Assembly (NCBI GenBank): GCA_003228115.1
Contig: QEVV01000001.1
Span: 467,834 to 531,833, forward strand
DNA: 64,000 bases
Direction of reading: 5' to 3'
Source of the DNA: Chloroflexota bacterium
GTDB lineage: Bacteria; Chloroflexota; Dehalococcoidia; Lucifugimonadales; SAR202-VII-2
Made by a program: the position numbers and the translations under genes. Shown in pieces: positions 25,753-51,627 of the stretch. The stretch's first letter is position 1. The number at the start of each line of letters is the position of its first letter. The notes below the pieces were generated by a model. The model was given only the letters and a program-made list of their open reading frames with translations, was not told where the DNA came from and did not search any database.

Positions 25753-25851
25753 TGGCGGGAGCGGGAGGGAGTCGAACCCACCACGGACTGCGCAGGCAGC
25801 CCGCCATCCGGGTTTGAAGCCCGTGGGGCCCACCGGGACCCATCCGCCCCC
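25753..25851 (-). tRNA. selC: tRNA-Sec (anticodon UCA)
   Basis: 8-bp acceptor GGGGGCGG/CCGCTCCC plus GCCA end; 6-bp D stem GGGTCC/GGGCCC; anticodon loop CT-TCA-AA; long variable arm GCGGGCTGC/GCAGTCCGT; GGTTCGACT T loop. Confidence 0.93.
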
Positions 25852-50085: not shown

Positions 50086-51627
50086 ATGCCTTTCAAGCAG
50101 CAGACGTTTGCCCTTGGCCTCACGGCCCTTCTGGCCTTGCTGGTGGCTTGCTCTAATAGCTCGGAACCCGCCGCTACTCCTACGAGTTCTCCTGAGCCAG
50201 AGCCCTCCGCAACTTCAACGTCCTCGCCTGCGGTGAGGCCAGCGACCCCGCCATCGCCCGTGCCCACCCTTGACCCAAGAATCCCGGAGCCGCCCGCACT
50301 GGAGGGCCCTGGCCAGCTTATGCTTACCGCTCTCCAGGAAGTCATCTTCAGTTCCCAGACTGCCGCAATTGGGGAGATCCGGGAAAGTGGCGATCCCACC
50401 TATATTCCCGCACTGGTGGAACTGCTTCGGTTCAATCCCTTCTATATGCAGGACGTAACGGACAGCCTCCTTTACGCTCTGGACACGTTGTCTGCTCCCA
50501 TCGATGGAATCACCTTTTCCACGAGATTCACCTGGAGCGCCTGGGTCAAGTGGCTTGCCGAAAATTCGATTGATGCTCCACAGGGCTTCGCAGCCTGGAA
50601 AGGCTATCTGTATACGTTAGTAGACCCAGCTATGGGCGCGTTCCTCTACGAAGGTGTGCCGACCAGGATCGACATTGGTGAAGTGGTGTGGGGGGGCGTA
50701 GCCAAGGACGGGATTCCCGACCTCAGGGACCCTCCTGTCGTTTCGCCTGAGGCGGCCACCTACCTGAATCCTGACGACCGGGTATTTGGCATTTCCATAA
50801 ATGGGGAGCACCGGGCCTACCCGCACCGCATCATGAACCCCCACGAAATGGCCAACGACGTCCTTGGAGGAGTGCCCATCGCGTTAGCCTACTGAACACT
50901 CTGTGGATCGGGAATCGTGTATTCCCGCACAGTCAACGGACAGGTCACCGAGTTCGGCACCTCCGGCTTTCTCTACCGCAGTAACAAGCTCATGTACGAC
51001 CGGGCCACAAATACGCTGTGGCGTCAGTTTATAGGCGAGCCGGTGGTAGGGCCGCTGGCTTTCAGCGGCATCCAGCTAAAATTGTTTCCCGTGACCGTTA
51101 CGACCTGGGAGCAGTGGCTAGAGGAGCACCCAAACACGACTGTTCTGGATATCCAGACCGGAATATACACACCAGACAGGTACCTGCCTGAGTCGGACCC
51201 CTCTTCGATCTACCACCTTTATCGTGAGGACGCTGGCACCATGTTCCCCGTTCCGCTGGAAAGCGACCTGCTGGCCACCAAGGCCGAGGTATTCGGCTTG
51301 CTGCTTGGGGGAGAGGCAAGGGCATACGCCTTGGACAGCCTTACCGAGACTCTCGTGGTCAACGACACCTTGGGTGGCGGGGACGTGGTGATCATTACCG
51401 ACCCGAAGGCCGGAGCCGCGCGGGCGTATGAGAGCGGCGGTCACACCTTTTCAGTGGGCGAAGGCAGCATGATCGTCGACGAAAACGGGACCAGTTGGGT
51501 AGCCCGTGACGATGCATTGGTGCAGGACGACGACCCCTCCCAAGAGTTGCCGCGGCTGGACGCCCGTAACGCCTACTGGTTCGGCTGGTCCTCCAACCAC
51601 CCAGACACCTCTGTCTACGAGGACTAG
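50086..51627 (+). CDS. DUF3179 domain lipoprotein, selenoprotein (Sec at TGA 50893-50895)
   Basis: Lipobox LLVAC; WGGVAKDGIP, RAYP..HEMAND..IALAY-TGA-TLCGSG continues in frame to FGTSGFLYRSNKLMYDRAT and YWFGW...HPDT. Confidence 0.88.
50901..50932 (+). promoter_or_regulatory. Bacterial SECIS element
   Basis: CTGTG-GAT-CGGGAAT-[CGTGT]-ATTCCCG-CACAG directly 3' of the UGA. Confidence 0.8.

Follow-up and report, generated by a model that had tools for sequence, protein, structure and literature searches.

Two questions are raised by positions 50086 to 51627 of the DNA analysed here, a stretch of 64,000 nucleotides (nt) of contig QEVV01000001.1 from a Chloroflexota bacterium, called the window below: is a TGA codon in the middle of a long gene read as selenocysteine (Sec), and what would a protein built around this residue do? 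The open reading frames (ORFs) 50086-50895 and 50917-51627 form one frame when TGA is read as U, as an original prediction from the DNA letters had proposed. The frame codes for 513 residues of a long-form DUF3179 protein and its sole TGA is codon 270. Judged from the gene and its relatives, the locus is almost certainly a genuine Sec-decoded DUF3179 lipoprotein gene. The best explanation overall, to which we give a probability of roughly 0.6, is that its product is a membrane-tethered DUF3179 protein with an extracytoplasmic Sec-Cys redox cycle. The elements on which decoding would depend are the following.

50086..51627, plus strand: selenoprotein gene (predicted), complete, coding for a DUF3179 lipoprotein of the long form; 513 codons, TAG stop
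50893..50895, plus strand: in-frame TGA, read as Sec270, aligned with the first Cys of the family CxxC
50909..50927, plus strand: conserved upper stem, 7 base pairs (bp), of the putative Sec insertion sequence (SECIS), with apical loop CGUGU (50916-50920)
50901..50932, plus strand: full hairpin of this window, including a 5-bp lower stem that is not kept in homologues
25753..25851, minus strand: tRNA-Sec, anticodon TCA (ARAGORN; Rfam RF01852, 65 bits)

Selenocysteine decoding of codon 270

Codon 270 lies in the context AY-U-TLCGSG. Its conservation was followed in 60 genomes of the same order and the source genome, 43 of which (out of 61) have a match to the 513-residue protein. Among the 30 long-form matches found in same-order genomes, 28 carry exactly one TGA and two carry none. 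In 34 aligned read-through proteins the TGA column is U 26 times and Cys 8 times, with no Trp and no Gly, and this alignment provides the Cys homologues that had been expected at the position. The motif at the Sec270 column reads U-T/P-L/I/V-C in Sec forms and C-P/V-L-C in Cys forms. In 79 named public-genome loci the motif was hit 83 times, with TGA at 39 hits and TGC or TGT at 44. Sec forms belong mainly to Dehalococcoidia, including SAR202, and are also present in metagenome-assembled genomes of Methylomirabilota, Rokuibacteriota and Acidobacteriota; a cultured SAR202 strain carries the Sec form as well. A tree of 92 DUF3179 domains, built after three short rows had been dropped, needs 8 changes between Sec and Cys, at least 5 of them forced by well-supported branches.

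The source genome codes for four further DUF3179 proteins, of which two have an in-frame TGA where the window gene has it in the motif and two have Cys there, bringing the DUF3179 paralogues of this 2.78-Mb genome to three Sec and two Cys forms:

G000:C1:188556-189458, minus strand: DUF3179 gene
G000:C1:316616-317434, plus strand: DUF3179 gene
G000:C7:471-1406, plus strand: DUF3179 gene
G000:C4:56048-56947, plus strand: DUF3179 gene

Bacterial SECIS elements follow a distance rule, and the loop CGUGU begins here 21 nt past the last base of the UGA. The hairpin is made of a 5-bp lower stem (50901-50905 with 50928-50932), a GAU bulge and a 7-bp upper stem (50909-50915 with 50921-50927). Its folding energy alone is not significant (z = -0.64; 52 of 200 shuffles fold as well), which counts against a SECIS, and the mean hairpin energies of Sec and Cys forms, -8.1 versus -7.1 kcal/mol, do not discriminate between them. 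What raises the hairpin above chance is the covariation of the upper stem in homologues. It was scored in ungapped alignments of 48 nt from the TGA, for sets of 26 and of 45 Sec forms (44 distinct). The 45 Sec forms give a score of 0.305 versus a shuffled mean of 0.111; none of 500 shuffles reaches the score and every slid control stays at or below 0.083. Pair 18-34 of this set is CG in 21 sequences, GC in 6, UA in 6, AU in 1 and GU in 1, while pair 17-35 is CG in 13 and GC in 9. Pair 20-32 is GC in 35 and CG in 3, pair 21-31 is AU in 27, CG in 5, GU in 5 and GC in 4, and pair 22-30 is AU in 37 and GC in 3. Similar exchanges are found in the set of 26, where pair 18-34 is CG (15), GC (5), UA (3) or AU (1) and pair 21-31 is AU (20), CG (3), GU (1) or UG (1). 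The loop bases G25 and U26 are invariant among the 26 sequences and at least 90% conserved among the 45. Among the paired bases are wobble positions in the codons for Gly, Tyr and Ser of the peptide G-I-V-Y-S, which is kept in most Sec forms and varied in Cys forms. The 5-bp lower stem is paired in merely 45.6% of cells in the 26 sequences and is thus not part of the conserved element; it is lineage-specific. Of the SECIS as originally described, the hairpin geometry holds and the upper stem gains covariation in its favour, but the lower stem does not stand as a conserved part. In three sequencing runs a second contig matches the window at 50800-50822 and 50909-50939 only, the intervening 86 bases having diverged; since the latter stretch covers the SECIS region, a relative has this region in near-letter-identical form.

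The machinery for Sec incorporation is encoded in the source genome (2.78 Mb in 18 contigs, 92% complete). SelA (564 bits), selB (361.7 bits) and selD (386.3 bits) all score above the curated cut-offs, and both genes whose absence would have spoken against the original prediction, selA and selB, are present. The selD match (G000:C7:30580-31503, minus strand, locus L009) has one in-frame TGA, so that selenophosphate synthetase is probably a selenoprotein itself. The tRNA-Sec previously reported in the window is recognized by ARAGORN and Rfam alike. The locus thus combines what characterizes bacterial SelB-dependent selenoproteins: UGA at a Cys position, a 3' SECIS with a loop G, and tRNA-Sec, SelA, SelB and SelD. 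The UGA at 50893 would be decoded as Sec by means of the hairpin that follows it, with the tRNA-Sec of the window and the genome-encoded SelA, SelB and SelD. RNA evidence was sought among the sequencing runs that contain the locus and none was listed.

Could the TGA be a plain stop, come from a sequencing error or mark the lesion of a pseudogene, leaving two ORFs or a dead gene? Gene callers do split the locus, 55 of the best 150 database representatives of the amino-terminal domain end exactly at the Sec position, and Sec insertion always faces competing termination. This explanation is nevertheless very improbable: related genomes share the TGA in 28 of 30 long-form matches and named genomes in 39 of 83 motif hits, the half past the TGA is conserved and fills the rest of the Pfam profile, the SECIS covaries and the genome has the full Sec machinery. 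Four further runs, from four seawater or marine metagenome studies, yielded contigs that span 50893 with 0 differences; these show TGA, where TGC, TGT or TGG would have pointed to an error. A variant genetic code in which TGA stands for a standard amino acid, Trp or Gly, would also keep the frame open, but its probability is close to nil. TGA acts as an ordinary stop in the window, terminating 13 of the 49 long ORFs, that is ORF 50086-50895 and 12 others. Stop-free stretches of at least 60 in-frame codons on each side surround 42 TGAs of the window, while only the one at 50893 has more than 200 on both sides. Homologues align a Cys with this codon, in no case a Trp or Gly, and a tRNA-Sec with anticodon TCA is at hand.

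Export and architecture of the DUF3179 protein

The 513-residue protein, which finds no family in NCBIfam, is organized as follows.

50086..50151, plus strand: signal peptide with lipobox L19-V20-A21-C22 (Cys22 codon 50149-50151), predicted
50152..50307, plus strand: Pro/Ser/Thr/Ala-rich linker, residues 23-74 (52 residues: P 15, S 10, A 6, T 6)
50308..50643, plus strand: helical N-domain, about residues 75-186, from helices of the AlphaFold2 (AF2) model; no Pfam family
50704..51609, plus strand: DUF3179 (PF11376), residues 207-508
50764..51147, plus strand: repeat 1, Rieske-like beta domain (modelled), residues 227-354, with H253-E254-x-x-N257-D258 and U270-x-x-C273
51271..51621, plus strand: repeat 2, second Rieske-like domain (modelled), residues 396-512, without the HE and UxxC motifs

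The PF11376 match spans the TGA and covers profile positions 1-292 of 292 (E 9.1e-77, 258.8 bits, cut-off 27). Within it an internal repeat is detected by hhalign between residues 227-359 and 395-513 (probability 99.7%, E 1.3e-25). The AF2 model of residues 70-513, computed with a 33-sequence alignment, reaches a pLDDT of 94.7 and a pTM of 0.91, and in it a helical domain leads into a body rich in beta strands; repeat 1 modelled alone has a pLDDT of 93.8. A comparison of repeat 1 to 48,161 chains of solved structure put Rieske-fold proteins in all of the first 44 rows, and the first non-Rieske row had a Z of 4.4. The best structural match is the NirD-like 3c0d (Z 9.2, root-mean-square deviation 3.3, 98 aligned), while Rieske ferredoxins give Z values of 8.0-8.6. 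Foldseek also places Rieske ferredoxins on top for repeat 1 (probability 1.0, E about 1e-2), a result that agrees in ranking but not in significance; with the 444-residue model it returned no match at E <= 0.001, and a family-profile sequence search of the PDB gave nothing below E 0.089. The 513-residue protein has none of the Rieske ligand motifs CxH or CxxH, its only Cys-type positions being 22, 270 and 273, and no Pfam Rieske match was found in it or in 33 members. The Rieske fold is present but the cluster ligands are not, so the similarity is one of fold only and DUF3179 is not a Rieske protein. The models show DUF3179 as a tandem duplication of a Rieske-like beta domain devoid of the Rieske iron-sulfur ligands, an assignment that is new here.

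The conserved motif residues are located in repeat 1 and are lacking in repeat 2: in the 33-sequence alignment E254, N257, D258, U/C270 and C273 are invariant and H253 is conserved in at least 90%. Sec270 and Cys273, the sole Sec/Cys residues of the mature protein, lie in the model in a beta-hairpin turn of repeat 1, between two strands. Strand boundaries and a two-residue GG turn suggest that His253 should face Sec270 across this hairpin.

The amino terminus MPFKQQTFALGLTALLALLVAC closes with LVAC and Cys22, which we take to be a lipobox from its consensus. A lipobox-like xxC[GS] is kept in orthologues, where comparable low-complexity stretches follow it. Lgt and LspA are encoded in the genome, both above cut-off, and together with the lipobox Cys they characterize the protein as a predicted bacterial lipoprotein. 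Its export would proceed through a Sec-type signal peptide with lipidation at Cys22, and the Pro/Ser-rich tether would hold it at the outer face of the cytoplasmic membrane. The lipobox, Pro/Ser/Thr linker and helical pre-domain of the original prediction were all recovered, by sequence, composition and the AF2 model respectively.

The helical N-domain has no Pfam match in any of the 33 members. Compared to solved structures it gives weak HEAT/ARM-like rows (Z about 6), possibly reflecting a mere common arrangement. A profile search gathered 852 representatives at E <= 1e-3. Among the best 150 of them, 55 stop right before the Sec position, another 24 are Cys forms of full length and the remaining 71 are fragments or unclassifiable, and no architecture other than with DUF3179 was seen. 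The 55 that stop before the Sec position indicate gene calls truncated at TGA; Sec forms of the long-form protein are thus routinely mis-annotated and deposited as proteins of roughly 250-300 residues.

Redox pair or metal site

The exchange of Sec and Cys at the first position of the motif, together with the presence of a single Sec-Cys pair, favours a selenol/thiol redox cycle. Sec270 would attack as the nucleophile, with Cys273 as resolving residue, the two forming a selenenylsulfide in turnover on an extracytoplasmic oxidised substrate. The pair would then be re-reduced by a membrane-anchored TlpA-like thioredoxin, itself fed by a CcdA/DsbD-type pathway. Between a metal site and a catalytic redox pair, we give the latter about an even chance as the role of UxxC. 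The original prediction of an extracytoplasmic thiol/selenol oxidoreductase of 513 residues is correct in length, while its oxidoreductase part stays putative and finds indirect support in TlpA-like fusions and adjacent genes of short-form relatives.

These thioredoxin links come from 159 loci, 80 of the short form and 79 of the long form, whose 1671 ORFs were searched with a thioredoxin profile started from one neighbour. Twelve ORFs are thioredoxin-like, 10 of them assigned by Pfam to AhpC-TSA, Redoxin or Thioredoxin and 2 without match. TlpA-like genes are on the same strand as DUF3179 with a gap of 17-76 nt in L172, L180, L160, L187 and L182, and upstream in L118. Those that neighbour short-form DUF3179 code for proteins with N-terminal anchors and WCGPC-type motifs. 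In L188 the two are fused, with DUF3179 at residues 94-406 and an AhpC-TSA/thioredoxin-like domain at 447-567. In the ESM Atlas, 103 proteins with a length of about 575 residues form a cluster that has DUF3179 in 100%, Thioredoxin_2 in 90% and AhpC-TSA in 87%. The source genome codes for at least three anchored TlpA-like proteins, and the gene of one of them adjoins a weak match to DsbD_TM, which at 23.9 bits falls short of the cut-off of 27.1 bits. Pyr_redox_2 proteins neighbour short forms in 10 of 80 loci, four of them glutaredoxin-fused and one MerA-like; the family is very large, so this neighbourhood is a weak lead only. The glutaredoxin-fused thioredoxin-reductase-like flavoproteins are found within a few kb of short-form DUF3179 in four Chloroflexota loci (L185:1748-2944, L190:54-1298, L197:2941-4140 and L212:3650-4879).

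Several observations weigh against a redox role. It is in short-form relatives that DUF3179 is seen fused with or adjacent to thioredoxins, and a Pfam-confirmed thioredoxin-like neighbour or fusion occurs in only 10 of the 159 loci, several of which are related Anaerolineales. The long form has no conserved neighbour among 885 ORFs of its 79 loci: the best non-self cluster, an ABC ATPase, is present in 6 of them and the remaining clusters are large catabolic paralogue families. The contact between His253 and Sec270 derives from strand register only. Thioredoxin-type oxidoreductases carry CxxC at a helix N-terminus, while CxxC in a beta-hairpin turn is the geometry typical of metal-binding knuckles, and the invariant E254, N257 and D258 with the nearly invariant H253 would also suit a metal site.

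The main rival reading, possible though in our view rather unlikely, is that the (U/C)xxC turn, His253 and the carboxylates form a mononuclear Cu(I), Zn, Fe or Hg site of an extracytoplasmic metal chaperone, sensor or scavenger. Such a protein would resemble Sco/SenC, in which a Cys pair and a His bind copper and TlpA keeps the thiols reduced, so that a TlpA-like partner is equally compatible with a metal site. The CxxC in the hairpin turn is followed by Gly/Ser, the TlpA-like neighbour in L118 gives a weak SCO1-SenC match (E 1.7e-5), and among the short-form loci L151 has a MerA-like reductase that carries an HMA domain, while L182 has an HMA P-type ATPase. Such metal-related neighbours are nonetheless found in only 2 of the 10 annotated Pyr_redox-neighbour loci, which are in turn only part of the 80 short-form loci, and the protein has no second knuckle and no further Cys. 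Moreover, exchange of Sec and Cys at one site is usually the sign of catalytic redox residues. The review tables that list the family (PMC9312934, PMC13188914) bear on both sides in the parts consulted: they include several predicted metal-binding selenoproteins, but give the family motif as UxxC/T, and a second Cys replaceable by Thr implies that a two-thiolate metal site is not essential.

If the redox cycle is retained, DUF3179 may tentatively be seen as an unrecognised class of extracytoplasmic selenol/thiol reductases, an extrapolation that could easily fail. Its members would be built from two copies of a Rieske fold without cluster, would carry a His-Sec-Cys site at a hairpin turn and would be recycled by dedicated TlpA-like thioredoxins. 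In marine SAR202-type Dehalococcoidia they would have expanded into several Sec and Cys paralogues, and the private helical domain of the long form would hold substrate at the cell surface. The sole Sec/Cys pair, the clear fold and the candidate thioredoxin partner provide direct handles for assays of a DUF3179 protein.

The neighbours of the gene in the window are SDR, cupin and amidohydrolase genes, that is unrelated catabolic genes, and no TlpA-like gene is adjacent. The neighbours of the four other DUF3179 copies of the genome are inconsistent. IscA-like Fe-S_biosyn genes (L129:4930-5298, minus strand, and L128:9863-10282, plus strand) are near two paralogues, one of them divergent from the C4 copy, and a chlorite-dismutase-family gene (L128:7287-8003, plus strand) and a ferredoxin gene (L128:8134-8523, minus strand) are near the C1:188556 copy; these associations may be due to chance. 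Four tandem DUF4286 paralogues (L130:2683-5570, minus strand) are directly upstream of the Sec-form copy C1:316616. Upstream of long-form Sec genes a SelA-family/aminotransferase class V gene (PF03841, 55.9 bits; L067:1229-2356) recurs in 4 of the 79 loci (also L073, L074 and L114); its product of about 376 residues is shorter than true SelA. Only two longer fusions turned up, one to FG-GAP/VCBS repeats and the other to GH4, and neither is informative.

DUF3179 among known selenoproteins and redox proteins

DUF3179 has a wide distribution, with 4615 homologues at E <= 1e-10 in one search and more than ten phyla when long and short forms are taken together. A control search also showed a member in Haloferax volcanii. 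The passages on the family in the sparse literature give no function, and a literature search for SAR202 combined with selenoprotein found no paper. Two reviews list DUF3179 in their tables as a UxxC/T selenoprotein family, no function being given in the parts consulted (PMC9312934, PMC13188914), in agreement with the statement of the original prediction that Sec forms had been predicted before. Both credit a 2007 study of the deltaproteobacterium symbiont of the Olavius worm (PMC1976440); the name DUF3179 is absent from section 12 of that paper. Since the family is already in the reviews as a selenoprotein family, the gene of the window is a new member of it. To what was known of the family, the analysis adds a fold, a link to thioredoxins, a private N-domain and evidence that its mis-annotation is systematic. 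The gene set adds several predicted exported selenoproteins to the abundant deep-ocean Dehalococcoidia.

The window gene shares with catalogued DUF3179 selenoproteins the Pfam family, the position of the Sec motif and a SECIS directly after the UGA. It differs from them as a long form, with lipobox, Pro/Ser linker and extra helical domain, from marine SAR202-like Dehalococcoidia. Rieske [2Fe-2S] domains and the cluster-less NirD have the same fold as each DUF3179 repeat in the models. Unlike Rieske domains, DUF3179 has no CxH/CxxH ligands, and the aligned ranges suggest that its Sec-Cys pair is in a hairpin turn away from the cluster site. Membrane-anchored thioredoxins of the TlpA/ResA/CcmG type are encoded by genes that adjoin or fuse with DUF3179 in relatives, and DUF3179 would be their client. 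In contrast to thioredoxin-fold oxidoreductases, DUF3179 has neither the thioredoxin fold nor a CxxC at a helix N-terminus and is thus not one of them, though it may work like a thioredoxin-type oxidoreductase.

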